40,347 nt of DNA, taken from a virus. Positions within the stretch are counted from its first letter, which is position 1. Every line of letters begins with the position of its first letter. Under the pieces are notes generated by a model that was not told the DNA's origin, ran no database searches, and worked only from the letters and a program-made list of their open reading frames with translations. This document shows positions 16,637-33,852 of this stretch, piece after piece. The translations under genes and the position numbers were made by a program. The stretch lies in UHGV virus genome UHGV-0039399; one strand, written 5' to 3'.

Positions 16637-16854
16637 TGGATAAGATCGGCGCAATACTCATTAATCGCGAGCAAGTGCAAAAAATGTTGGGCGGGCTTAG
16701 TAAGTCGGCGTTTTTTAAACTGGTTAAGAAGTGGAAGGATTCAGGTACTCCATTCCCTGAACCCGTTAAGGGGATGCCAGCATTAAAGCGCGGCGGTTAT
16801 CTTTACCGTTATCAGGATGTTATTTCATTTTGTAAATCAATGGGCTTCATGTAG
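16636..16854 (+). CDS. excisionase-like / AlpA-type small DNA-binding protein
   Basis: 72-aa protein with the excisionase-type HTH pattern (INREQVQKMLGGLSKSAFFKLVKK); adjacent to int, 3' ends overlap by 43 bp. Confidence 0.6.
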   Translation: MDKIGAILINREQVQKMLGGLSKSAFFKLVKKWKDSGTPFPEPVKGMPALKRGGYLYRYQDVISFCKSMGFM

Positions 16855-18011
16855 TAATCAGCCAGTTTATTCATCGCCTCGATTTGCTCCCTCACATAGT
16901 CATACTGATCGTATATAGCAAACATCCCCGCCAGCTTATGACCCAAAACCTTTTCCGCGACATGAGGCGCAACGCCAAGCGCTGAAAGGTTTGTCCTCAC
17001 GGTGCGGCGTAGATCGTGACACGACCACGGCTCGCCGCCCATCCTCATCATTAAATCCCTCGCTGCTGTTTTCGGCACGCTTCTGTCCACCGCAACATCC
17101 CTTCCAGAAAGCACAGGAACGAAGACAAAATCAAAGCTATGTAGATCCATAGCCTCACGCAATAAAGCCACGCTAACGTTCGATAAACCGCGTTTAAACT
17201 CATTCCTGTTCTTACTCAATGCACCAGGAACAGTCCACACGCAGCTATCAAGATCGAAATGCTCGCGCCTTGCGTTTGTCAGTTCGCTTGTCCTGCACCC
17301 GGTAAATATAATCAGCTTCATCAATATCTGGTTCAGTCGCGCCATTTTTGAACTATCTACAAGGCCGATTAGACGGTGGATCTCCTGTATTGACAAAACT
17401 CGCTTGCCTTGCGCTGGTTTTTTGCCTACGTCTTTAACGCACAGCAATGATATATCGTCACGATCCACGCGGCGGCGGCGAATGGCGTATTTTATTACGG
17501 CCTTCATTCTGTTGAGAACTATGCCTGCCTGAACTGGTGCGCCACCATTAGCTACCTTCCTAAAAACTCCCTCCCACATCATAGCGTCCATATCATCTAC
17601 AATATAGCTACCGTATGGTTTTATGACGTGCTTACCTAACATGGACTCAACCTGCTTATAGTTGACCATGTTCCTTGCCTGCGGCGATTCCATGTACTCC
17701 CTTACAATATCCTCAACCGTCGCCCGTGTCGTAACTCTGGAAAGGTGCATTCTTTTTGCTACCGATGGATCTCGTCCTGAGTTTAGTAATTCTTTATGCT
17801 CCGCCACCGCCGCCCGCGCTTCTTTGAGCGTTATTTCTCCGTATGTGCCAATCTTCATCCGTCGAGGCTTGCCGTTGAATCGGTAGCGATACTGGAAAGA
17901 TATAACGCCTCGTGGGCTTATCCTGGCAGACAATCCGCCAGCGTCCGGTAATTCCTCCGGGCCGTCGTACGGCTTGCCGTGAATGTTTCGTAATTTGGTA
18001 TCTGTAAGCAT
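16812..18011 (-). CDS. int: tyrosine site-specific integrase
   Basis: 399 aa; N-terminal arm-binding-type domain; C-terminal catalytic region with HDLRRT...LGH and conserved Tyr context. Confidence 0.95.
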   Translation of the reverse strand: MLTDTKLRNIHGKPYDGPEELPDAGGLSARISPRGVISFQYRYRFNGKPRRMKIGTYGEITLKEARAAVAEHKELLNSGRDPSVAKRMHLSRVTTRATVEDIVREYMESPQARNMVNYKQVESMLGKHVIKPYGSYIVDDMDAMMWEGVFRKVANGGAPVQAGIVLNRMKAVIKYAIRRRRVDRDDISLLCVKDVGKKPAQGKRVLSIQEIHRLIGLVDSSKMARLNQILMKLIIFTGCRTSELTNARREHFDLDSCVWTVPGALSKNRNEFKRGLSNVSVALLREAMDLHSFDFVFVPVLSGRDVAVDRSVPKTAARDLMMRMGGEPWSCHDLRRTVRTNLSALGVAPHVAEKVLGHKLAGMFAIYDQYDYVREQIEAMNKLADYYMKPIDLQNEITS

Positions 18012-18324: not shown

Positions 18325-20883
18325 TTATTCTTCGCTTCCGGTTAACTGCAGGACAAGCTCTTCAAGTTTTGCGATCCGTTCATCCATGACGGCAATGTTG
18401 GCGCGTAGGCTTGCGTTTTCCTCTTCCAGTTCGGTTACGCGGTTATCTGTTTCGCGTGCCACCTGGACAAGTAAACCAGTCACCGCAGCATAGTCAACAT
18501 TGAGATAACGCGTTTCTTCGCGTAGCTCGTTGCCGTCAGTGGTCGGGCCTTGCAATGCTTCACCGTAATGAGTAAACGATCCTACCGCTTCCGGCAGCGC
18601 TTCCATGACTTCCTGAGCGATAACGCCAGCGTAAGGCAGGCCGTTTTCCTTAAGGGTGTATGTGTACCCGTTCATTTTACGGATTGCTTCGGTAGCGTCA
18701 CCTATAACCTGAATGTTGTCTTTCAGGTCGCGATCTGATGATTGATTGAGCGTAGTGCAATTTACTACGCCGTTAACCTGAAATTTAACCGTGTTATCTG
18801 TATTAAGCTGGCAGAAAAAACCGTAACCCAAGTTACTGCCACTATCTGGATCTATATAACTATATTCCAGAACAGATCCTCGAGTATCGCTACCCCAAAA
18901 CAACATTTCTAAGTTTTTTACTGCTGTTTTTTTTGTTTCGATACTAAAGCGTCTGACGAAATCAGAGTCGTAGATGGAAATTTTTTTTAATGTTGAATCC
19001 CCGTTAAGCACCTTAAGTTTAGGCACTTCTATTTCGTTATTGACAAAGTTGTAGCCAATGGCAGTCCCACCAACTGGCGTTTCCCAATGGTTTTTTTCTA
19101 TGCGCCAGTTGCCGCCGTCAAATATGAAAGCGTAGTCCGGCGCACCTTCAGGTCTGTCAGTCTCATCAAATTTAATTGTTGGGTGTGCGCTCGTCAAAGT
19201 TAATGGATTGCTTACGTTTGACATTAATTTTGCAGTTTTGCCTATAAAAGACCCTTGATTTAAAGCAAAGTCGCCGTCTTCGTTCAATCCTGCATATATG
19301 TTTATATCATTACGCTGTAGGTGAGTTGTTGCCCACGCCTTACCATCACCCCTAAACTCGGTGTAAATGCGCGTTCTTGCTCTTTGCGCTCCTGATGTAT
19401 TGCTGAGTATGCTTTGTAATATGCCTCCGTTAGTGGTTTCATTATCCGAAGAAATTACAAGATTGAGATTTTTAAATTGTGGGCTATCAGCAAAGTCTAG
19501 GGACTGAAATTTCTTCCACGCGCTCCACTCCCAGCCATTTGAAGACTGAATAATGTATTGGCGCATATAAAAAACGCCATTTATAGCATTGTAAGGGAAA
19601 TAAAGCTGAGTGCATCCTGATGCGGTATTCGCGCCGTTTTTTATAACAAGCAATGCACCAGCAGCTGCCAACGGATAGCCACGATCAGTCGTTGCAGCCG
19701 AATTCGTTGTCTGATAATAAAAACCAGAATACTCGCCGGTAAGTGTATTAATGTTGGTTTCACTTAAGGCTGATCTTTTCTCGTGCATAACTTCAAGGTT
19801 TGTGCGCGCTTGCCCTGCATTGCGTCCTGCTGTGCCGCCTTGTGCAATATCTAACGGTTTCCATTGACCGATCTCGCTATCATAAACACCCCATGCACAA
19901 TTATTGCCGATTTCAAAATAAATTTTTCCGTTGCCAGAGTAAAGGCGAGTCTGGCTATCTGCAATTTGCATTAGGCGACTAACCTCATCTTTTCTTGCGT
20001 GCCTTGTCCATTGCGGGCCTGTTGATTCGCTCCACTTATAAGTGTAAGCACTGCCGGTAATATGCCCTATAAAAAGACCAGAAAACGCCGGGACACTACC
20101 TAAAGTCGGGCAAATAAAGCCAGACAAATAGCGCTCACCTGAAGCAATAGAAGGCCACCCGGCAGCCCCTTCCATGATGCGCAGAAAGCCAAGATAGCCT
20201 GATGGGTTTCCTGAAATATCCGGGCAATCTCTTGGGTTTGAGGAAAGACCAATGCTACTCCCTACAATACCTTGCGCCTGGTTACGATAATTTAGCGCAT
20301 CGGCTGCTGATTTTGCTGCATTGGTTTCGCTGGTTGCTGCCGCTGTTTTGCTGTTGCTGGCTGCTGTTTCACTGGCTTTTGCTGCATCCTGTGACGCTTT
20401 TGCTGCGGTTGCTGAGTTCGCTGCTGCTGTTTTTGATGCCGCCGCCGCGTTTTTGTCTGATTCTGTTTTTTGGGCGTTGGCTGTTGATTTCGCTGTTTCT
20501 GCGCGAATGTCGGCAAGAAGTTGTTCCATCTGACCATCACCGCCGAACTCGTTCCACCATTCAACGGCTGTTGCAATCTCTGATTCCTTGCCCTGGTAGT
20601 AACGCAGAGTTTCGGCTACATCCTGGGCAAGCCCATCAACTGAGATCGAGTCAGAAAGCAGAATGCTAAATTTTGTCCCGGCAGCGATTGCAGGGTTAGC
20701 CGCTGGCGTTACTGACAGTTCTGTACCGCTCTTGATTTCGGTGACGGTAAAGATCTGGATAGGGTTGCTGATGGCAATAAGCGTGCAACCAACACGAATG
20801 AGAGAAAGCGGCTCGGAGAAGTTTGTCCCCGTGCCTTTAACAGTGTTGCCATTAACGGCAATTGTTCCAGTTGTGTAAATCAT
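18325..20883 (-). CDS. side tail fiber with C-terminal intramolecular chaperone (S74-type) domain
   Basis: 852 aa; Ala/Ser/Thr-rich fibrous repeats; C-terminus carries the SSDRDLKDNI motif and coiled coil typical of self-cleaving chaperone domains; GGAG RBS. Confidence 0.8.
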   Translation of the reverse strand: MIYTTGTIAVNGNTVKGTGTNFSEPLSLIRVGCTLIAISNPIQIFTVTEIKSGTELSVTPAANPAIAAGTKFSILLSDSISVDGLAQDVAETLRYYQGKESEIATAVEWWNEFGGDGQMEQLLADIRAETAKSTANAQKTESDKNAAAASKTAAANSATAAKASQDAAKASETAASNSKTAAATSETNAAKSAADALNYRNQAQGIVGSSIGLSSNPRDCPDISGNPSGYLGFLRIMEGAAGWPSIASGERYLSGFICPTLGSVPAFSGLFIGHITGSAYTYKWSESTGPQWTRHARKDEVSRLMQIADSQTRLYSGNGKIYFEIGNNCAWGVYDSEIGQWKPLDIAQGGTAGRNAGQARTNLEVMHEKRSALSETNINTLTGEYSGFYYQTTNSAATTDRGYPLAAAGALLVIKNGANTASGCTQLYFPYNAINGVFYMRQYIIQSSNGWEWSAWKKFQSLDFADSPQFKNLNLVISSDNETTNGGILQSILSNTSGAQRARTRIYTEFRGDGKAWATTHLQRNDINIYAGLNEDGDFALNQGSFIGKTAKLMSNVSNPLTLTSAHPTIKFDETDRPEGAPDYAFIFDGGNWRIEKNHWETPVGGTAIGYNFVNNEIEVPKLKVLNGDSTLKKISIYDSDFVRRFSIETKKTAVKNLEMLFWGSDTRGSVLEYSYIDPDSGSNLGYGFFCQLNTDNTVKFQVNGVVNCTTLNQSSDRDLKDNIQVIGDATEAIRKMNGYTYTLKENGLPYAGVIAQEVMEALPEAVGSFTHYGEALQGPTTDGNELREETRYLNVDYAAVTGLLVQVARETDNRVTELEEENASLRANIAVMDERIAKLEELVLQLTGSEE

Positions 20884-21051: not shown

Positions 21052-21300
21052 ATGAAAAACGTGTTCAAAGTGGTTTTGTTCGCTGCGGCTGTAGCTCTTA
21101 CTGGCTGTGCTGTTGACAAAGAGGCTGCATTGCATAACCTGCCGAATAGCGGAGTGATTCCACAAGATGTTGTATATGATGGAAGCGGTCATCTTGTCTA
21201 TGACACTGAAAAACTGCCGTATACTGGGCAATGGTGTCATGAACTCGATCACAACATGCGCCGCATCGGTAGCCCTTCGAACTGTGTAGCTAACTACTAA
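21052..21300 (+). CDS. small lipoprotein, candidate Cor/Llp-like superinfection exclusion protein
   Basis: 82 aa; signal peptide with lipobox LTGC; GAGGA RBS; opposite strand between J and the tail fiber gene, ending in a strong terminator. Confidence 0.6.
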   Translation: MKNVFKVVLFAAAVALTGCAVDKEAALHNLPNSGVIPQDVVYDGSGHLVYDTEKLPYTGQWCHELDHNMRRIGSPSNCVANY

Positions 21301-21304
21301 AAGA

Positions 21305-21335
21305 AAACCCCGCGCGAAGCGGGGTTGTTTTTTTA
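21305..21335. terminator. bidirectional rho-independent terminator (lipoprotein gene / J)
   Basis: CCCCGC-gcgaa-GCGGGG hairpin followed by a T-run on the plus strand and an A-run/U-tract on the minus strand. Confidence 0.7.
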
Positions 21336-24300
21336 TCCTGAGAATGAACCGGAACCGCGCGACACAATGACTGTCGGCGATTGTATATAAGCCCCCTTGC
21401 TATTTTGAGCGGATACCTTAATGGTAACTGTAACGCTCTTGCTAGTTACTGCTGATGAATGCATAACAAGGCGCTCAGTGCCATCTACCATCGAGGCTTT
21501 TGATGAACCGCCGATCGTTATTGTGCAACCACCATAACCTTTAACGTTAGCCATAACACAAACATGTCTGCTATGTGCAGCGTCTGACGTGTCGGTGTAT
21601 GTGATTGTTTTTACTAGCTCACCATCCCTTGTTCTGCTAACGTCAGATCCCGTATACATGTTCGCAACGTCACCGATAAAGGTCTTCGCCTCAAGTGACC
21701 CTGAGAACTTACCGCTGCTGGCATACACGGCCCCCCTTACCGTTACGTTGTTAAGTTCCGCGCTACCGTTTTTGTTGATCATCCAGCCGGAAGACCCTGC
21801 TGCGTAGTTGGTTGACTGTATCTGCTGTGCAATTTTAGCAGTAGTAATGGCTGCATCTGCAATCTTAGCCGTTCCTATTGATGCGTTTTTAATAAACGCT
21901 TCTTTTACATACATTGCGCCGTTAGACACATAGAAAGGCGCTGTATATGTGCCGTTTGCTGCGGTCATTAACACGAAGCGGTCAACGAGGAAAATACACT
22001 GCGATTGAACGTTAGTACCGTTGCCAGTTAAACCAAGTGACATACCTGTTGCGTATTTCATGCCGTTGTTGTCGGTTGCCAGTTTGATGGAGTACGTCGC
22101 ATCGACATTACCCTTGAAGTCGGTTAACGCTTTCGACGTCGTTTGTATCGCTGTTGTGTTCCCGTTAACGGTCACTGTTAGCTGATCGATTTTGTTTGAT
22201 AATGCCTCGTCAGCCGTTGCCATAGCCTGTGACCATTCTGTAATGCTTGAGTTTACAGATTCGAAAGACGCTGAGATCTGGCCGAATTTTTCCGCGCTTG
22301 ATGCCTCATGCGTAGAAAGCGCCGTTGATACCTCAGACACTTTCGAGTTAATCGTACTGGTAAGCGATGAGTTAAGACTATTTATCGCGTCAGTGCGTGC
22401 CTTCGTTTCGTCTGCAATGGCCTTGTCAATACGAGTCACGTTGCTTGTAACCTTGCCATCAAGTGTTGAAATTGACGCATTCACGCCACTGATGGCTTGT
22501 GCTCTGGCACTGGCCTCGTCAGCAATTGCCTGGTCCAGTCTGCTAACTTCGGATTCAGTGTTGCTTTCAAGCGTGTTAATGCTTGCGTTCACGCCACTGA
22601 TTGCCTCGCTGCGTGCGTTTGTCTCGTCAGCGATAGCCTTGTCGAGACGGGAAACGCTGGCGTCGGTTTTCTTGTCTAGATCCGTGATCGATGCTTTTAC
22701 CACGCCAATTGCTTCGGCTGTAGCCTTTTTCTCTTCAGCGATAACACTGTCAATACGATCAATCTGCGCGTTTGTTTCCTTGCGACCTTTCTTGTACTGG
22801 GCCGTAAGGGTAACGCGCGTGTTGGTCTGAGCGATTGAGTTATTAATCAGCGCAATCGAAGCGTTTTGCAGGCTTGCTTTTGTCTGATTTATATCATCGC
22901 TGTTTTTGTCAACGCTATTTTCAATGCTGCCGATCTCCGCGTTAATGCCTGAGATTGCTTCAGCTCTGGCGCTTGATTCGTCTGCAATAGCCTGATCCAA
23001 ACGTTTAACGCTGGCGTTTGTGCTGTTTTCAAGCGTTGTCAAATCAGCATTAACGTCTGTTATTGCTGCGCTTCTTGCCTGCGTCTCGTCAGCGATAGCC
23101 TTGTCGAGACGGGAAACGCTGGCGTCAGTTTTGCTTTCAAGGTTGCTTATTGATGCTTTAACATCGCTCACAGCCTGGGCGCGGGCGCTGGCCTCGTCGG
23201 CAATCGACTGATCAAGGCGTTTAACTTCTGAATTGGTGTTACCTTCAAGTGTGTCAATACTTGCTTTGACTCCGCTGATTGCGTCAGTGCGTGCCTTCGT
23301 TTCGTCGGCGATAGCTTTATCTATGCGCGTTACATTGCTTGTTACCTTGCTATCAAGCGTTGAAATTGACGCATTCACGCCACTGATGGCTTCAGTTCTT
23401 GCGCTGGTTTCGTCTGCTATTGCTTGATCCAGGCGTTTCACGCTGGCGTCAGTTTTCTTGTCTAGCGATGAGACACTCGCGTTAACGTCACTAACTGCCT
23501 GTGTGCGGGCGTTCGTTTCGTCTGCGATGGCCTGATCAAGTCTGTTGACGCTGGCATCGGTTTTCTTGTCTAGATTGCTTATTGATGCGTTAACGCCGTT
23601 GATTGCTTCAGCGCGGGCGCTTGCCTCGTCAGCCACTGCGCGTTCCACGCTGGAAATCTGACCCTTAAGGTTAGAATCCATCGTGTTCATTTCTGCAGTG
23701 ATGGTTTCCAGTGATTCCGCTGTAGCCTTTTTCTCTTCAGCAATAACGTTGTCAATGCGGTCAATTTCAGCCTTCGTCTCTGTCCTGCCTTTCTTGTACT
23801 GAGCAGTGAGAGTAACCCGCGTGTTGGTCTGAGCAAGGGAGTTGTTGATAAGTGCCAACGACGCGTTTTGCAGGCTTGCTTTTGCTTGCGCCAGTTCACT
23901 GCCAACTTTTTCGCTAGATACCTCCAGAGAATCTATTCTTGCCTCATGATGTCCAATATCGTCGGCGTTTTCTCCAACCTTTTTGTAAAGATCTTCCGTC
24001 TCTTTTTTCAGTGTGTCCGTGTCAGCTTTTATGGCCCCTGTTTCTGTGATTAGGCCGTCCGTATCAGTCCTCAATTCGTCAGTGATGTTTATCAGGTTGT
24101 CAGTTTCAACCCTCAAATCGTCAGTGATGTTTGTCAGGTTGTCAGTTGCAGTTTTGAGGTTGTCAGTAGCGTTTTTAAGGTCATTTGTAGCGCTTTCGAT
24201 AAGGTCGGCACGGTCGCCAAGATCTTTAATGTCGCCGATCATGCCCTTGAACTGTTCTGACTCCATGACGTCCTTCATCACGTAGTCGCTGATTTCGTCG

Positions 24301-26711
24301 AAGTTTTCAGTCGGTTTTCCTGATGCCTCAACAAAGTCTGACACACCAAAGGCATTACGCGTGCGCACATAAACGTAATATTTATGGCCCGTGTTCATGC
24401 CGCCAAAAGTCCATTGGTAGCCGCGCCCGGTGAATTGCGCCAGCATGGTTACTTTTGATGGGTCTGTGATCTGGTTTTCACCTGAGTAATAAAACTCGTA
24501 TGCTGTATCAGTGGTCAGGGTTGTTTTGCTGATCGGATATACCGTTGCCTGGAAGACACCGGGAACCCAATTGACTCCAATCGGGGCTGCTGGCGCACCA
24601 ATAACCAGGTCAACAATACTTTCAGCACCCTTCATGCCAGTGTCATTACGCCCGCGAATACCAAGCGTGTAGCTGCCAGCATCCAGGCCATAAAAATCAT
24701 AGCGGTAATTCGTGGTTTCATAAGTTGCCACAATGCGGCCTTCGGTGTTATATACGCGTATTTCAAAGGTCAGGCGATGCGTTGTCGTCTGTGTTTCCCA
24801 TGTTGCGCGGCACTGGACTGTCTCAGAACCAACGTTTAACACCTTCAGATTTTCAATGTTCGGCACGCGGAAGTGATTAAGCGTGTCGTTGTTTACCTCG
24901 AAGATTGCGCCTTCATCAACTACAGCCTGTTTGTGCGGATCGTGCTGTGCAGCCTCAATGGTGTACACGCTGTTATTTTCGGTTTCCGCTACGCTGGTAA
25001 TTCGGCACAGAACAGGTTTTGCTGATTCAGTCGATACAGCAAACACGGTTCCGTTACGAATCCATGCTGGCGCTGACGCAAGGGTAATATTGTTTCCGTT
25101 AACCCCAGTGATCTGATGTTTTTTAAACTTGCCGTCGCTATCCAGTAAGCTGATAGTGTCGCCAGCCGCCACCAGATCAGAATCAACCTTGTCTACAGTT
25201 ATCACTTTCCCGTTATTCGCTACGATGCGACCGCCTAAACGAGCGGCTGCGCGGTTATTGTCGAGTATCTCGATAATATCCCCTGGGGTGAAGTGAATTG
25301 CGTCACGGGCCATTTTAAACGTGAATTTTGAGGGTTCGCGTTTTGCTGTTTCTATCAGCCATTTGCCAGCGCGGTACGCCTGCCCGCGTGACGTGCAACC
25401 GAAAGCCTCCAACGTGGTTTCGTTGTAACCATCGCGGGCGATCAGTTCGTCATCTGCCACGTATTCTTTTGATTGTTCCCAACCGTTTTCAGGGTCAGTC
25501 CATGACACGATAACGGCGTTGTAAGATTCTGCGCGAGCGATACTTGAACGAGTGAACGCGCCATCAACGACGTTTGCATTTGTGATAGTGGCAATTGGAT
25601 CTTGCGGTGCATCAATCATCACCGTAAGGCGCTGCCCGTCCCATAACGCGATACCACGGAACATGCCTGCAATGTTATCCAGCAAGTCGCGGGCGCTCAT
25701 TTGCTCCGTGATGTAAGCGTTAAGCGTCATGCGTGGTTCAAGGCCGCCGTAACCGTCGTTTACCAACTGGTCGCAGTATTGAGAAAGCGTATACAGTGCG
25801 CCGTCATCAACGTCGATGTAACCAGCGTGGCGGGCAAGCCCGAAGCGTTCATTTTTAACCAGATACCGGAAAAGCCACGCAGGGTTGTTGGTGTATGCCT
25901 TTTTGAAGCCACCAAGCCATAAGCCTGAATACGTGCGCGTTTCAGGGTCGTAGTTATCAGGCACATCAACAATCAGACCGCGCATGTGATAGGTGCGTGT
26001 CGGGGTATCAGTATACTGATCGTGGTCAATTACCGCGCCTGCTACAGCGGTGTGAGGATAAGATAAATTATCGTCGATTATCTCGCTGTAACTGCCCCAT
26101 CTGGTGTCATTGCGAAGTAGATCGCTTTTGCTGTCTGGCGTTACGCGACGAACGCGAATATCAAACGGTTTTTCATCCGGCGCCTGGATGATATGCGCTT
26201 CCATGTACTCGCCGCTTTGTTTACCAGGGCCAATTGTAATGCCTTTAACCAGTGACCACGATGTTGAGGATGAAGGCTTAACGTCAACCGCCAGCGTAAC
26301 CGATGTGTTGTATTGATTGCCCTTATCATCTGACTGAACCAAAGCATCAACGCCGAGATTCAGCCTTACGCGGTTAACGTTTGGATCTGAAACGGTTCGG
26401 ATTATTGGCGTATCGTGAGTTACTTTTGCGTTAACAATAACGGTTGATTCAATGGCGTTGAATCCGTTGATTGGTGACTGGTCAGCCGTACCATTACGCC
26501 ACGCCACGCTAACGCCAGGGACTGATGTACCTCCGTTGGCGTCAGTGATTGGGCTGTCATTAAGCATAACGCTGTTTAATGGCGCTTTCTGGTTTACAGG
26601 TCCGTAGATTGGGCCTTCGCTGAGAATGTCCAAAACGCGATAAAACTGTTTATGAAACAGGTTATCGTTTAATAATGTTGGTGTTTTGGCTTTGCCGCCG
26701 CCGCTACTCAT
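21333..26711 (-). CDS. J: central tail fiber / host specificity protein J with expanded coiled-coil stalk
   Basis: 1792 aa; N-terminal region and C-terminal domain align with my recollection of lambda gpJ; a roughly 660-aa repetitive coiled-coil insertion lies between them. Confidence 0.9.
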   Translation of the reverse strand: MSSGGGKAKTPTLLNDNLFHKQFYRVLDILSEGPIYGPVNQKAPLNSVMLNDSPITDANGGTSVPGVSVAWRNGTADQSPINGFNAIESTVIVNAKVTHDTPIIRTVSDPNVNRVRLNLGVDALVQSDDKGNQYNTSVTLAVDVKPSSSTSWSLVKGITIGPGKQSGEYMEAHIIQAPDEKPFDIRVRRVTPDSKSDLLRNDTRWGSYSEIIDDNLSYPHTAVAGAVIDHDQYTDTPTRTYHMRGLIVDVPDNYDPETRTYSGLWLGGFKKAYTNNPAWLFRYLVKNERFGLARHAGYIDVDDGALYTLSQYCDQLVNDGYGGLEPRMTLNAYITEQMSARDLLDNIAGMFRGIALWDGQRLTVMIDAPQDPIATITNANVVDGAFTRSSIARAESYNAVIVSWTDPENGWEQSKEYVADDELIARDGYNETTLEAFGCTSRGQAYRAGKWLIETAKREPSKFTFKMARDAIHFTPGDIIEILDNNRAAARLGGRIVANNGKVITVDKVDSDLVAAGDTISLLDSDGKFKKHQITGVNGNNITLASAPAWIRNGTVFAVSTESAKPVLCRITSVAETENNSVYTIEAAQHDPHKQAVVDEGAIFEVNNDTLNHFRVPNIENLKVLNVGSETVQCRATWETQTTTHRLTFEIRVYNTEGRIVATYETTNYRYDFYGLDAGSYTLGIRGRNDTGMKGAESIVDLVIGAPAAPIGVNWVPGVFQATVYPISKTTLTTDTAYEFYYSGENQITDPSKVTMLAQFTGRGYQWTFGGMNTGHKYYVYVRTRNAFGVSDFVEASGKPTENFDEISDYVMKDVMESEQFKGMIGDIKDLGDRADLIESATNDLKNATDNLKTATDNLTNITDDLRVETDNLINITDELRTDTDGLITETGAIKADTDTLKKETEDLYKKVGENADDIGHHEARIDSLEVSSEKVGSELAQAKASLQNASLALINNSLAQTNTRVTLTAQYKKGRTETKAEIDRIDNVIAEEKKATAESLETITAEMNTMDSNLKGQISSVERAVADEASARAEAINGVNASISNLDKKTDASVNRLDQAIADETNARTQAVSDVNASVSSLDKKTDASVKRLDQAIADETSARTEAISGVNASISTLDSKVTSNVTRIDKAIADETKARTDAISGVKASIDTLEGNTNSEVKRLDQSIADEASARAQAVSDVKASISNLESKTDASVSRLDKAIADETQARSAAITDVNADLTTLENSTNASVKRLDQAIADESSARAEAISGINAEIGSIENSVDKNSDDINQTKASLQNASIALINNSIAQTNTRVTLTAQYKKGRKETNAQIDRIDSVIAEEKKATAEAIGVVKASITDLDKKTDASVSRLDKAIADETNARSEAISGVNASINTLESNTESEVSRLDQAIADEASARAQAISGVNASISTLDGKVTSNVTRIDKAIADETKARTDAINSLNSSLTSTINSKVSEVSTALSTHEASSAEKFGQISASFESVNSSITEWSQAMATADEALSNKIDQLTVTVNGNTTAIQTTSKALTDFKGNVDATYSIKLATDNNGMKYATGMSLGLTGNGTNVQSQCIFLVDRFVLMTAANGTYTAPFYVSNGAMYVKEAFIKNASIGTAKIADAAITTAKIAQQIQSTNYAAGSSGWMINKNGSAELNNVTVRGAVYASSGKFSGSLEAKTFIGDVANMYTGSDVSRTRDGELVKTITYTDTSDAAHSRHVCVMANVKGYGGCTITIGGSSKASMVDGTERLVMHSSAVTSKSVTVTIKVSAQNSKGAYIQSPTVIVSRGSGSFSG
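22190..24200. repeat. in-frame tandem repeats within J (84-bp/28-aa units, acidic heptads, and a duplicated block about 1 kb apart)
   Basis: Repeated protein unit RLDQAIADETxARxEAISGVNASISxLDxKTDASV about 12 times; the anchor KASLQNAS(L/I)ALINNS(L/I)AQTNTRVTLTAQYKKGR occurs twice (DNA near 22880 and 23880). Confidence 0.8.
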
Positions 26712-26725
26712 GGTTTTTTCTCCTG

Positions 26726-27256
26726 TTAACTTACAACGTCCAGGGCGTCTCTGTTGTTGCTTGTGTCTATGCCTAACGACCCGACATTTGAACCTATTTT
26801 CATTTCACCCAACAGGATCGGCACTGGTCTACCCTGGCCTACCTTGTTTTCAACGCTGGTGTATGTGTTGTTAGATATGGTGTTATCTTGTGCGCTTTCT
26901 GCTGATGTTTTTATCTTCATGTTGCGTGACATAAAGATCGAGAATGCAACGCTAACAACCGAAACACCGATCAAAATCCAACCTACAACGCCAATCCCAG
27001 CAATACCACCTTCCACCACTGGCGCAACAATGACTGTGGTTCCGTCCTGGTATTTACTGTTAACCGCTGCGGGCGCGGTATTTTCGTCATAATCTTTCCC
27101 GGCAATTCGTAAGCGCAATGGGGTACTTAAAAACGCCTTTTTGAACTCATGATTCTGCGCAACCAGCAAGCCAAGCCCCTGCGCTGGCGTGTCAACGTTT
27201 AAACACACTTTGCCGTAATATCTTCGAAGATTGCCCGTAAATCTAAACTTGAGCAT
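26726..27256 (-). CDS. I: tail assembly protein I
   Basis: Matches my recollection of lambda gpI (ubiquitin-like N-terminus, hydrophobic Gly-rich middle, PVPILLGEMKIGSNVGS vs lambda LPVLYGEMRVGSRVVS). Confidence 0.85.
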   Translation of the reverse strand: MLKFRFTGNLRRYYGKVCLNVDTPAQGLGLLVAQNHEFKKAFLSTPLRLRIAGKDYDENTAPAAVNSKYQDGTTVIVAPVVEGGIAGIGVVGWILIGVSVVSVAFSIFMSRNMKIKTSAESAQDNTISNNTYTSVENKVGQGRPVPILLGEMKIGSNVGSLGIDTSNNRDALDVVS

Positions 27257-27930
27257 TTGTCAGATCTCCATATTGAATTGGTCTGTCGAACATACGCGGG
27301 CCGCATTTGCTCGCGGCGGCTTAACAGTCCGGCATTGTCATGATGCAAAACAGTGTTATCGCCCAGGTAAATCATCGCGTGGCATGGGTCAGCGCCTTTA
27401 AACGGCTGGCGAATAATCACGTCACCTGGCTGAATGCTTTGCGCGTCAACCATGAAAAACCCGTGCAATGGCAGGTTCTTTATGTACAGGTTTTCCCCAC
27501 GCAGCCACCACCCATCGTGGCGCTCAAAATCAGGTAGATCCACGCCGCAAAGATGGTAGGCGTCACGGAAAAGCGAGTAACAATCTGCTTTCCCATGTTC
27601 AAATTTACGGCCCAACAGGTGCGCCACCGGGCGGAATTTTCTTACCCTGCCGCCGGAACACAAATACCACGGCAGACCGGAAATGACCTGCTGTTGCCGA
27701 TCCCGTGCTGACAATATCAACGAATTGTCAGTATGGGAGTGAAAAACGGCGGTTATAACGCCTAATTCGTCAGCATTGATATAATCGTCAGGCGAGATTT
27801 TAAAACTGTTGTGCGGCGCTTCAGACACGTTAGCGCACGGGTAAAAATAATCATCATCTATCACCAGCCCGCACACTTCCTCGCGAGGGTGGGCTGCGGC
27901 GTAGCGAATCATTTTATTTTCAAGTGCCAT
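27199..27930 (-). CDS. K: tail tip assembly protein K (JAMM/MPN plus NlpC/P60 domains)
   Basis: Strong similarity to lambda gpK as I recall it (HSH metal site, RKFRPVAHLLGRKFEHG, DCYSLFRDAYHL); start refined to ATG 2 nt after the L stop. Confidence 0.9.
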   Translation of the reverse strand: MALENKMIRYAAAHPREEVCGLVIDDDYFYPCANVSEAPHNSFKISPDDYINADELGVITAVFHSHTDNSLILSARDRQQQVISGLPWYLCSGGRVRKFRPVAHLLGRKFEHGKADCYSLFRDAYHLCGVDLPDFERHDGWWLRGENLYIKNLPLHGFFMVDAQSIQPGDVIIRQPFKGADPCHAMIYLGDNTVLHHDNAGLLSRREQMRPAYVRQTNSIWRSDKCSSLDLRAIFEDITAKCV

Positions 27931-27932
27931 AA

Positions 27933-28637
27933 TTAACCCACCTTGCTGGACCCAGGGAAGCACGAAATCGGTAACGAATTAGGGCGTGGGAAACGCAAAC
28001 GGCAACCGCTCAGGCGGTGGCTGCACCTATCCAGCTTCGGATCGCTGGTCGATTCGTCTTTTTCGGTAGCTACAGGGCCGCCGCTGTATCCGCAACCGTC
28101 GCCCCGGTATTGCCACTGGCAAACGTCGGCGAGGATTGTGCGCCCAGGGATAACAGCCTTGTCAGCATCAATTGGCGTTGACAGTTCGTATTGCACATGA
28201 TCTGCCGTTTCTTCGCTCATCGCCTCAATGACGTAAAAAGATACCGCCTCGATAGACGGATCTGCATCCGGGTTGCCATTGGGGAAGTTGACGGCGTCCA
28301 GGTATTTTACTTCCACCTGGCGGCGCGTAACCTTCATCCCTCGCAGGTCGTTAAAGTCGTTGTTCATCCCGGTAATTAGCCCACCAATGTTAGCCACTGC
28401 CATCTGCGGGCGTGAGTAAACGCCTTCATTTTTCATTTCGAAGCCAGTGGCCTCGATTGGGTAGCTGTTGTAAGCCAATCCCTTCCAGATAACAGGGCCG
28501 TAATAGCCATTCGCGCCGGAATGGAAGCGGATAACCTCGCCACCCAGGGGCGTGAGGTCTAATTCAAACAAGTCAATTACCGCGCCGACTCCGGCATCGA
28601 CGGAATCAATAATCATCTCTGTAGGTATGTTGCGCAT
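27933..28637 (-). CDS. L: minor tail protein L
   Basis: Strong similarity to lambda gpL as I recall it (LDAVNF.NGN..ADP, GR..LA..C.W.YRGD.CGYSG, C-terminal Cys cluster). Confidence 0.9.
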   Translation of the reverse strand: MRNIPTEMIIDSVDAGVGAVIDLFELDLTPLGGEVIRFHSGANGYYGPVIWKGLAYNSYPIEATGFEMKNEGVYSRPQMAVANIGGLITGMNNDFNDLRGMKVTRRQVEVKYLDAVNFPNGNPDADPSIEAVSFYVIEAMSEETADHVQYELSTPIDADKAVIPGRTILADVCQWQYRGDGCGYSGGPVATEKDESTSDPKLDRCSHRLSGCRLRFPRPNSLPISCFPGSSKVG

Positions 28638-31475: not shown

Positions 31476-31506
31476 TAACCCCGGCATTGTACCGGGGTTT
31501 TGTTTA
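31476..31506. terminator. rho-independent terminator between the convergent cassette and tape measure gene
   Basis: CCCCGG-cattgta-CCGGGG hairpin followed by TTTTGTTTATTT. Confidence 0.65.
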
Positions 31507-33852
31507 TTTCCTGCGAGGTTGCAACATACCGCCAGGTCGTTGTGATTCCCTTGCCATCATTTTCATTGCTACGCGCTCCATCGTCTGTTCAAGTCTGCGA
31601 CCGTCTTCGTCGCTAAACCCGTTCGTGGTATGGACGTTTATGTTAACGGGCATATTTATGCCGCCACCATTGAAGAGATCACGGCCAGGAATCACCCTAC
31701 CATTCTCGCCAGGAATCATATACTGACGCCCGTTGCTCGTCTGGAATAGCTCAGGAATCCCGTGTTCACCTACGCGATACAGACTACCACCATTAACAGA
31801 ACCACCATTATAACGCCCGCCGCCAAAAATTGACGTTGCCAGCGACATGATCGCAGAAAGCGCCGCAGCACCAGCCGCCGCCCAGCTACCGCCAGTCGAT
31901 GCAGCAGTAGCCGCCGCAGCAGGGGCCGCCGCAGCCGCGATCTCACCCTGGGCAGCAACAGCGCCAGCCGTTGTACTTGCCTGGGTAGCTTTGCTTTGCG
32001 TTTCCATCATCAACTGATCTGCTATCCAGTTAGCGGCAATTTCTGATAGTTTATTGCCAACAGTATTGAGTATGCTGCTTCCCAGGTTGGCGAAAACCTC
32101 ACTTAGCGATTGAGTACCGTTTAGCAGTCCGGTAAGGGCATTACCCATGCCACCTTTCAGGCCGCTGACGCACGCACCAATCAGGCCGTTTGTGTCGCTT
32201 TGCGCCTGCCATTGTTCCCATTTCAGATCTCTGATCTGTTGTTCATATTCCAATAGAGCCTGTTTCTGTTGCGCCTCTGTAGCGCCCAGGTCTATTAGCA
32301 TTTGTTTTCGAACTGCCCATTCATTTTGCGCCTGCTTGATTGGGTCAATTTCTCCCTTAAGCTGGTCCATCGGGCTAACTATGTGGTCCCATTTATCGCG
32401 TAGCTCATCAACCGGGATCTGAGCTAATTCGTCCTTCAGTTCCTTGCCTATCCCTTTCTGCGCGGCCTTGTACTCAAGGAGGGTTATTTTGCCCTGGGCG
32501 AACGCAGCATCAATGGCCTTGCCGTTCTCCAGCGCCTTACGCATGGCTGCGGCGTCCTTGTTGTACTGGTCGGACACTTTTATACCTTCATCACCAAGCC
32601 GATCAGCTTCTGATTTCTTGTCCTTTTTGCCCTTTTTCCCTTTCTTCGGCTTACCAACTGGCTGATCGAATCCCGTGATCTTGCCATCGTCAGCCTCACC
32701 CTGTTTCTGCATAAACTCATCATAGGCGGCTGTGGCTTTTTCTATGTCATTCTTAAATGTCATGAATTTGCCAATGGTAGGGCCAAATTTCTTCTCGTTG
32801 TTGCTGTTTAGCTCTTCCTTGCGTTTGTCAATGATTTCCTTCATCCATTTGTAGCCATCCATTAGCGCCTTGATTGGCGTCACCATTCTGATGATTTCTT
32901 CCGCCACCTCTCCCGCTTTAACAGCAACATCGTCAAACATGTCGATGAACTCGCTACCAGCGGTTTTAAGTGTATTGAAGCAGGTTGCGGCGAATTTTGC
33001 GCCTTTACCTAATCCCTCAACGCCACCAGTGATTAAGTCTATTGCTGACACAACGCCATCTGATATGCCGAAAAGATCGTCTAGCTGTTCGACAAGCCCC
33101 ATTACCTCAACTTTAAGCTCGTTGAAGGCCATGCCGGACGTGCGCGGCAACTGTGCGAACTTCTCGTTCGTTTCCTGCGTGGATGCCTGGATCGCGTTGA
33201 GCATCCTTTCAGCCGTGATCTTACCGTCCAGCATTTCGGCGCGGAATTGACCCATTGATAACCCCATTTGGCGGGCCATTTCCTGTATGATTGTTGGTGT
33301 GTTGTCACGTATTGAGTTAAATTCTTCAGCCTGCAACACGCCAGCATCAATAGCCTGGCGGAACTGGCGCATGGAGTTAGATAGCTGTTCCGCAGACACG
33401 CCGCCCAGGTTGCCTAGTTTTTGCAGCGTGCTGACCAGGTTTAAGACCTGGCCTTCCGTAGCGGATGTATTTTTTAGCGATATAGCAAGCCCTTGCCACA
33501 GGTCGCCAGTGTCCTTGAGGCTTTGGCCTGTCTCTTTTGATATATCTTTCAGTCTGTTGAAAACGCGTTCCGTGGCCTCTGCTTCACCTGTAAGCAGTTT
33601 GATTTTCACGCGAAGCATTTTTGCTTGCTCCGCCATGTCAATAAACTGGCGCACAGCCTCCGCAGCAAGTAACAGATGGATGACCCTGGATAGTGCTTTG
33701 ATTGAAGTCTTAAGCGTATTCACCTGGCGGTCAGCGCGTTTTGCGCCACGCTCGATACTGTCAAAAGCCTGGTCTGCCTGTCGTTGAGCAACGAGAAGTT
33801 GACCAGTTTTTGCATCAACTTCGTAATAGATTGTACCTAAACTACCCGACAT
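31504..33852 (-). CDS. tail tape measure protein
   Basis: 782-aa, largely alpha-helical, Ala/Gln-rich ORF with a Gly-rich C-terminal region, positioned between tail chaperone and M. Confidence 0.9.
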   Translation of the reverse strand: MSGSLGTIYYEVDAKTGQLLVAQRQADQAFDSIERGAKRADRQVNTLKTSIKALSRVIHLLLAAEAVRQFIDMAEQAKMLRVKIKLLTGEAEATERVFNRLKDISKETGQSLKDTGDLWQGLAISLKNTSATEGQVLNLVSTLQKLGNLGGVSAEQLSNSMRQFRQAIDAGVLQAEEFNSIRDNTPTIIQEMARQMGLSMGQFRAEMLDGKITAERMLNAIQASTQETNEKFAQLPRTSGMAFNELKVEVMGLVEQLDDLFGISDGVVSAIDLITGGVEGLGKGAKFAATCFNTLKTAGSEFIDMFDDVAVKAGEVAEEIIRMVTPIKALMDGYKWMKEIIDKRKEELNSNNEKKFGPTIGKFMTFKNDIEKATAAYDEFMQKQGEADDGKITGFDQPVGKPKKGKKGKKDKKSEADRLGDEGIKVSDQYNKDAAAMRKALENGKAIDAAFAQGKITLLEYKAAQKGIGKELKDELAQIPVDELRDKWDHIVSPMDQLKGEIDPIKQAQNEWAVRKQMLIDLGATEAQQKQALLEYEQQIRDLKWEQWQAQSDTNGLIGACVSGLKGGMGNALTGLLNGTQSLSEVFANLGSSILNTVGNKLSEIAANWIADQLMMETQSKATQASTTAGAVAAQGEIAAAAAPAAAATAASTGGSWAAAGAAALSAIMSLATSIFGGGRYNGGSVNGGSLYRVGEHGIPELFQTSNGRQYMIPGENGRVIPGRDLFNGGGINMPVNINVHTTNGFSDEDGRRLEQTMERVAMKMMARESQRPGGMLQPRRK

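Follow-up and report, generated by a model that had tools for sequence, protein, structure and literature searches.

How does a lambda-type central tail fiber come to be some 660 residues longer than J of lambda itself, and what could the additional length do? We have addressed this question in a stretch of 40,347 nucleotides (nt) of the virus genome UHGV-0039399, referred to below as the window. On its minus strand, a single uninterrupted open reading frame (ORF) at 21333-26711 encodes 1792 amino acids (aa) plus a stop, according to the ORF list and its translation; all J coordinates given below refer to this strand. It is probable, in our assessment, that the product is a gpJ-type tip protein whose helical shaft has been expanded by repeated units and acts as a spacer.

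The identification of the ORF as a lambda-gpJ-type central tail fiber is secure and agrees with an earlier note on this DNA, which had called it a J-type central fiber. PHROGs assigns the 1792-aa protein to phrog_31, 'central tail fiber J' (E=0), and its top PDB sequence match is lambda J (8iyk_J, E 3.3e-181 over aa 1-851, phmmer), with further lambda J entries among the best matches. The complete lambda-J domain set was found with Pfam. The hub part of the protein (aa 1-608, 24888..26711) contains FNIII-A_GpJ (aa 88-214) and Phage-tail_3 (aa 335-492), and its domains are gpJ-homologous (PF24801, E 3.9e-36; PF13550, E 1.8e-28). Two fibronectin type III (FNIII)/Ig domains follow at 24279..24887, Ig_J at aa 609-707 (PF24421, E 6.5e-16) and Ig_J_second at aa 709-811 (PF24489, E 1.3e-31). 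Upstream of J and on the same strand lie I (26726-27256, phrog_32), K (27199-27963, NlpC/P60 and JAB domains), L (27933-28637, Phage_tail_L) and the tape measure gene (31504-33852), which is the lambda-type L-K-I-J order. In over 40 relatives, J is likewise an unbroken, collinear ORF. The phage is a temperate E. coli siphophage of the published mEpimmI group (mEp021-like coliphages).

The excess over lambda J, previously estimated at about 660 aa, is exact (1792 versus 1132 aa). In blastp alignments, aa 1-850 match lambda J 1-857 at 37.7% identity and aa 1518-1741 match lambda J 841-1056 at 21% identity, and the distance from the end of the second FNIII domain to a conserved prism motif is 758 aa in the window J and 74 aa in lambda. 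The alpha-helical shaft of lambda comprises residues 809-861, or ~53 aa; upon binding of LamB, this shaft turns by ~180 degrees, part of it refolds to beta-structure and the FNIII domains are loosened (PMC11101478). The ends of the alignments, together with the position of the lambda shaft, thus place the expansion inside the helical shaft. Judged by these alignments, the window stalk appears to be a lambda-type helical shaft grown about ten-fold.

Units, anchors and heptads of the stalk

Repeats were located by comparing the DNA with itself, and the array was then mapped with a profile hidden Markov model (HMM) built from ten units. The self-comparison revealed a 108-nt period, seen as eight 72-nt cores at 22471-23652 and as 300-nt copies stepping by 108 nt, together with three 42-nt copies at 24049-24174 in the heptad zone and a 173-nt direct repeat, D3, at 22710-22882 and 23712-23884 (81% identical, 1002 nt apart). 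Tandem Repeats Finder reported only 42-nt heptad pairs and not the 108-nt array, because the copies of the latter are ~60% identical. When the protein was laid out in a 36-residue register, it lined up perfectly, and the HMM found 12 copies at exact 36-aa spacing, ten of them strong (independent E-value 1e-18 to 1e-23). Two of the 12 are degenerate 'lead' units, one located right after each of two anchor segments. The unit consensus is VxRLDQAIADETSARxxAISGVNASISTLExKTxSx, in which A9, D10, E11, A14, R15 and A18 are invariant. The earlier count of about 12 copies is therefore borne out by the 12 in-register units, but their length had been given as 28 aa, and self-comparison, register and HMM all yield 36 aa (108 nt).

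From its N-terminal side, the stalk begins with the start of the alpha-helical shaft, which can be aligned to lambda by blastp (aa 812-840, 24192..24278). About ten acidic heptads with the consensus xTDNLxx follow (aa 841-912, 23976..24191), marked by the 42-nt repeats and a hydrophobic period of 3.52, and then a linker predicted to be helical with low confidence (aa 913-942, 23886..23975). Anchor 1 (aa 943-982, 23766..23885; KASLQNASLALINNSLAQTNTRVTLTAQYKKGRTETKAE) precedes block A, in which a degenerate lead unit (aa 983-1018) and seven 36-aa units (aa 1019-1270) were mapped by HMM and the 108-nt period to 22902..23765. Anchor 2 (aa 1271-1316, 22764..22901) is a copy of anchor 1 at an offset of 334 aa or 1002 nt; both anchors are supported by D3, and each contains a helix break predicted by AlphaFold2 (AF2), at aa 970-975 and aa 1306-1312, respectively. 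Block B consists, by HMM, of a lead unit (aa 1317-1352) and three 36-aa units (aa 1353-1460) at 22332..22763. A distal segment, helical in the AF2 model, leads from there into the beta-prism (aa 1461-1520, 22152..22331). Both the acidic heptads and an anchor duplicated ~1 kb apart had been recognized previously, and the latter corresponds to the D3 pair. Two ORFs run antisense over the repeats (22192-22830, plus strand, 212 aa; 24013-24285, plus strand, 90 aa); having no PHROG family matches, they were taken as spurious and probably owe their existence to the repetitive codons of J.

Fourier analysis of hydrophobicity along the stalk gave a period of 3.52 in the heptad zone and of 3.60 in both unit blocks, where 3.5-3.67 is the range of a helical seam. 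A period of 3.60 corresponds to ten helical turns per 36 residues, with core positions 1, 4, 8, 11/12, 15, 18/19, 22, 26, 29 and 33, and one way to read the unit is as three heptads and a single element of 15 residues. With such a period, the bundle would be nearly free of supercoiling. A 36-residue repeat can peak only at 36/k, so the value of 3.60 is consistent with a continuous helix and is not independent proof of one. An AF2 model of aa 800-1530, computed for a monomer from a single sequence (mean predicted local distance difference test score, pLDDT, of 62), was used for secondary structure only. It predicts helix across aa 802-1529, or 98% of aa 800-1530, except at the two breaks, both of which fall at a QYKKGR motif, one per anchor, and which split the stalk into segments of ~168, 330 and 217 aa. 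The extra ~660 aa are thus predicted to be all-helical, in line with the hugely expanded, internally duplicated stalk that the earlier note had described. By analogy, the stalk would be a trimeric coiled coil of three parallel strands, and with its ~720 helical residues it would, at full extension, be ~100 nm long.

Length variation among relatives and age of the array

A megablast search of phage genomes returned seven records only, with 84-94% DNA identity, six of them from the mEpimmI group. Their annotated J proteins comprise 1828 aa in mEp554, 1828 in mEp044, 1727 in mEp021, 1707 in mEp010, 1504 in mEp013 and 1393 in mEp515, and 1478 aa in the seventh, MagusPhagus. A related gene is present in 33 of 5426 complete E. 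coli genomes, none of which is more than 91% identical, and no record in the phage and E. coli genome collections was more than 95% identical over the whole J gene. The closest J is that of mEp554, with 93-95% protein identity. It was already noted, in one sentence, that mEpimmI J proteins have different sizes and 'repeats of different length (positions 950-1,475)', and J of mEp021 was identified as a virion protein by mass spectrometry (PMC11893012). The window J is a new allele of this published family, whose size variation and repeats were thus on record; that paper does not describe unit size, periodicity, where in the shaft the repeats lie or how the length changes (PMC11893012).

Alleles were compared from 48 IMG/VR loci, the seven phages and the window, and 49 of the J alleles were complete. 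These have 33 different lengths, from 1318 to 1828 aa, with stalks of 265-794 aa and 0-12 significant units; at 758 aa, the window stalk belongs to the second-longest class. J of mEp021 and J of mEp515 show 100% protein identity and zero DNA mismatches, save for one indel of 334 aa (1002 nt). The junction of this indel lies inside homologous copies, its size equals the spacing of the anchor duplication in the window, and the two phages are 99-99.8% identical in the flanking regions compared. Likewise, the J proteins of L019, L018 and L022 (1620, 1656 and 1692 aa) are 100% identical save for one or two 36-aa units at the same site (J aa ~1195-1300), where adjacent units are identical at 98 of 108 nt. 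This series represents either a very recent change in copy number or, less likely, short-read collapse.

The window J and J of mEp554 are 95.3% identical and are separated by a single 36-aa gap in block B, which is one unit shorter in the window than in mEp554, mEp044 and mEp021. Other stalk gaps in pairwise comparisons are mostly of 36, 72 or 108 aa, while those in the heptad zone, which is 38, 52, 59 or 73 aa long in relatives, are of 7, 14, 21 or 35 aa; sizes of 82 and 154 aa are seen when the gap involves an anchor. At least one anchor was found in nearly every relative analyzed, including short-stalk alleles missed by a stricter motif. The unit blocks vary independently between alleles (7+4, 4+4, 4+2 and 5+0), and single-anchor alleles exist. 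In-register recombinational length variation in the J family is supported by these observations. Each C-terminal class was found with several stalk lengths, so that stalk and receptor-binding modules assort independently.

Among the short-stalk IMG/VR alleles without the 36-aa unit, L052, L036 and L050 carry a different helical repeat of ~33 aa after the same anchor, e.g. LESKVNDEISANLTEMQQTIATLEESTSQSIEK, and in L034 a ~33-aa helical repeat is not evident. The ~33-aa repeats suggest independent expansions of the shaft.

The units of the window are mutually 56% identical in protein and ~60% in DNA. Third-codon identity among them is 36%, which is nearly randomized, the longest exact intragenic match is 44 nt, and conservation across phages follows the position of a unit in the array. 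We therefore regard the array as old and largely stable, changed by an unequal crossover now and then; on its sequence, it is probably a poor substrate for frequent slippage. The earlier note had regarded the repeats as substrates for recombination. This holds for the relatives, where length variation is seen in the mEp021/mEp515 pair, in the L019/L018/L022 series and in the 33 lengths among 49 alleles, but it fits the window less well, as the units there are mostly old duplicates.

An assembly artefact, with collapsed or expanded repeats, was the outcome that the earlier note had named as fatal to its proposal, and we consider it extremely improbable. In a protein search with the stalk only, many database J entries (P0003-P0016) were 'partial' and began or ended inside the stalk, which tells little about full lengths and indicates that short-read assemblies often break there, and the near-identity of adjacent units in L019, L018 and L022 makes short-read collapse conceivable for that series. 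In the window, however, units of ~60% DNA identity and a longest exact repeat of 44 nt allow reads of at least 100 nt to be placed uniquely, and the reading frame is intact throughout. The arrays of mEp554, mEp044 and mEp021 differ from that of the window by exactly one unit, and L012, an independent contig with 90.7% DNA identity, has the same 1792-aa layout. The 44-nt limit and the L012 layout together lead us to treat an artefact as excluded. Some of the partial J-family entries carry a Pfam match to PF28217.1.

Receptor-binding end and proposed function of the stalk

Distal to the stalk are a beta-prism (aa 1521-1668, 21708..22151), corresponding to the 'central straight fiber' of lambda, and a C-terminal receptor-binding domain (aa 1669-1792, 21336..21707). 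The prism was recognized as Phage_Tail_Tip/DUF1983 (PF09327, E 1.2e-37; 8jvm_F, E 0.003), and the receptor-binding domain is a predicted beta-sandwich (pLDDT 80-90 at aa ~1680-1785). The AF2 model of aa 1461-1792 was built from a shallow alignment and is confident only for this terminal beta-sandwich. Its best PDB match is lambda gpJ713 (8xcj_F, E 1e-11) at a low TM-score of 0.24, and A8 gpJ713 is also among the best; with TM-scores this low, the Foldseek matches do not justify calling the receptor-binding domain lambda-like. Over its last 125 aa, the window J shares 94% of residues with mEp013, 77-82% with mEp554 and mEp044 and 70% with mEp010; this stretch is unrelated in sequence to mEp021 and has no significant sequence similarity to lambda (20%). 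Of the earlier description of the C-terminus as lambda-like but divergent, the beta-prism (21% identity to lambda 841-1056) bears out the likeness, whereas the receptor-binding domain resembles lambda at most at the fold level.

In tests with Keio knockouts, mEp010, mEp013, mEp044 and mEp554 need LamB, and mEp021 and mEp515 need OmpA (PMC11893012). Because of its homology to the four phages typed experimentally as LamB users, the receptor of the window phage is probably LamB.

The results on the stalk, the relatives and the C-terminus, taken with the lambda literature, suggest how such a fiber might work. As their lambda counterparts do, the N-terminal 840 aa make up the hub of the tail tip and the two FNIII domains, and the C-terminal ~270 aa would form a trimeric beta-prism and receptor-binding domain. 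Between them, the ~53-residue, three-helix shaft of lambda would have become ~700 residues of predicted continuous alpha-helix, with ten heptads and then 12 units, in an array interrupted by two ~40-aa anchors that each hold a predicted break (QYKKGR). The array may have originated by tandem duplication of the unit and one segmental duplication of 334 aa comprising an anchor plus units, and its length would change by in-register unequal homologous recombination, independently of the type of receptor-binding domain. It is hypothesized that a largely straight trimeric rod serves as a passive spacer, placing the receptor-binding domain up to ~100 nm ahead of the tail tip. Binding of LamB would tether the virion, and the fiber would then bend or fold aside so that the tip reaches the outer membrane, for which the two anchor breaks are plausibly candidate hinges. 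Bending of the lambda fiber has been seen by cryo-electron tomography (PMC12617516).

Several points weigh against an extended spacer of this kind. The AF2 stalk model is that of a monomer from a single sequence (mean pLDDT 62), which leaves the trimer and the extended geometry as predictions, and the anchors, with pLDDT of 43-50, could be non-helical in a trimer. In the published description by transmission electron microscopy, '~130 nm tails' are all that is reported, with no word of a long terminal fiber. J length is uncorrelated with side-fiber length among distinct true fiber pairs (rho 0.13, p 0.51); a first-pass rho of 0.47 had included non-fiber ORFs and duplicate pairs and was rejected. 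The receptor was assigned by homology only. Finally, mEp021 and mEp515, with stalks of 794 and 460 aa, both infect K-12 via OmpA (PMC11893012). As both stalk lengths plate on K-12, length is not decisive in the laboratory, and any adaptive role would be conjectural.

The text on microscopy, which is without a long terminal fiber, would suit a stalk that folds back at the anchor breaks into a shorter, thicker antiparallel bundle, in which the number of units alters stiffness or packing. The breaks at aa 970-975 and 1306-1312, with the three segments that they give, and the 180-degree turn of the lambda shaft back onto the prism after receptor binding point in the same direction. We nevertheless find such a bundle unlikely, as the three segments are very unequal in length, the segment lengths change independently between alleles, which is hard to reconcile with fixed antiparallel packing, and some alleles have a single anchor. 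A less improbable, if still doubtful, alternative is that the stalk is an adaptive ruler whose unit number is selected to match the thickness of O-antigen or capsule for reaching LamB or OmpA. The earlier note had likewise thought it possible that a longer fiber adapts reach to different surface structures. The ruler would account for many distinct lengths in in-register steps, for otherwise identical series that imply recent change, and for the uncoupling of length from receptor-binding domain type, and the E. coli hosts met in nature, in contrast to K-12, are smooth or encapsulated. On the other side, the variation could be neutral, and the window units are mostly old duplicates with saturated synonymous sites, suggesting long-term stability over rapid tuning; both lengths also work on K-12 (PMC11893012).

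We are slightly more skeptical of a modular form of the ruler, in which projection through O-antigen or capsule is tuned in steps of 5.4 nm (one 36-aa unit) and of ~50 nm (the 334-aa block) as these are naturally gained or lost in register. If it were true, binding at ~100 nm from the tip would have to open the tail by a non-lambda route, such as hinge collapse at the anchors, and the otherwise identical J genes of mEp021 and mEp515 make the idea directly testable.

The unit-expanded shaft acting as a spacer, which we prefer, matters beyond this phage. In lambda, it is the short helical shaft that, once LamB is bound, flips and loosens the FNIII domains so that the tail opens, and infectious phages with shafts of 265-794 residues test how far this triggering model generalizes. 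J proteins that are identical save for stalk length offer a ready system for relating central-fiber length to adsorption through O-antigen or capsule. Receptor-binding domain type and fiber length are separate, exchangeable modules, which is relevant to the engineering of phage host range. Since a size-variable, repeat-bearing J was already published, what is gained here is a quantitative anatomy and natural evidence for in-register recombinational change in length.

Neighboring genes and known systems

Convergent with J lies a lipoprotein gene (21052..21300, plus strand; 82 aa, lipobox LTGC; phrog_12984), whose product is 100% identical to Lpp010 of mEp010, and the two genes have a bidirectional intrinsic terminator in common (21306..21326). 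A type-C Lpp exclusion lipoprotein beside J is a mark of LamB-using mEpimmI members and is thus present in the window. Adjacent lipoproteins give superinfection exclusion, and Lpp010 excludes LamB-using mEp phages and lambda, but not mEp013 (PMC11893012). As the receptor-binding domain of the window is mEp013-like (94%), the phage's own exclusion protein may leave its own fiber type unaffected. The lipoprotein is probably a functional partner of the receptor-binding domain in superinfection exclusion and not part of J.

The side tail fiber gene (18325-20883, minus strand) encodes 852 aa that include a helical region rich in alanine and, at the C-terminal end, an intramolecular chaperone domain of the Peptidase_S74 type (aa 716-767); side fibers of relatives have 587-1161 aa. 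Directly beyond it is a tyrosine integrase gene (16812-18011, minus strand). The side fiber is the right end in linear mEp maps, so that the two ends of the phage map are joined within the window, which suggests either a prophage or an assembly that is circularly permuted. On the other side of J, mEp021 has an HNH endonuclease gene between I and J that overlaps the J start (L005 1937-2503), and in mEp515 this gene (L007 1937-2503) is annotated 'hypothetical protein'; the window is without it, and I (26726-27256) abuts J.

With lambda gpJ (PDB 8iyk, 8xcg and 8xcj; PMC11101478), the window J has in common the order of hub, FNIII-1, FNIII-2, shaft, beta-prism and receptor-binding domain, as well as a homologous prism and, likely, LamB as receptor. 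It differs in the stalk distance (758 versus 74 aa) and in a receptor-binding domain without detectable sequence similarity.

The trimeric autotransporter adhesins YadA and BadA also have coiled-coil stalks with non-heptad periodicities, in which repeat number sets the distance from anchor to head. These unrelated bacterial proteins serve as an analogy only, and no sequence relationship is claimed.

Among J-type fibers, P0036 (1922 aa, 27% identical) has a ~950-aa helical stalk in which the motif AIAxExxAR, also present in the window unit, recurs. In P0036 and P0024, the long helical region precedes a Phage_Tail_Tip/DUF1983 domain, according to Pfam for the former and to the source name for the latter; for the Sphingomonas/Rhizorhabdus proteins P0025 and P0028, which were grouped with P0024 as DUF1983 proteins, no such domain is recorded. 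Distant DUF1983 proteins of Sphingomonadaceae were also matched in the stalk protein search, and the unit profile matches 52 clusters among 1.84 billion representatives, P0036 included. P0036 and the Sphingomonas/Rhizorhabdus proteins differ from the window J in their irregular repeats (31-41 aa spacing) and are only distantly related to it. Long helical stalks thus recur in J-type fibers, while the strict 36-aa unit occurs in a narrow group only.

Within that group, mEpimmI J proteins have the 36-aa unit, the heptad zone and the anchors in common with the window J, and the local context is alike, with L-K-I-J, a convergent lipoprotein gene and a side fiber. Across alignable parts, the window J is 89-95% identical in protein to J of mEp554, mEp044 and mEp021, and less so to J of mEp010, mEp013, mEp515 and MagusPhagus. 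Unit counts are 12 in the window (8+4), 13 in mEp554, mEp044 and mEp021, ten in mEp010 and five in mEp515, mEp013 and MagusPhagus. The window J combines a stalk like that of mEp554 with a receptor-binding domain like that of mEp013.

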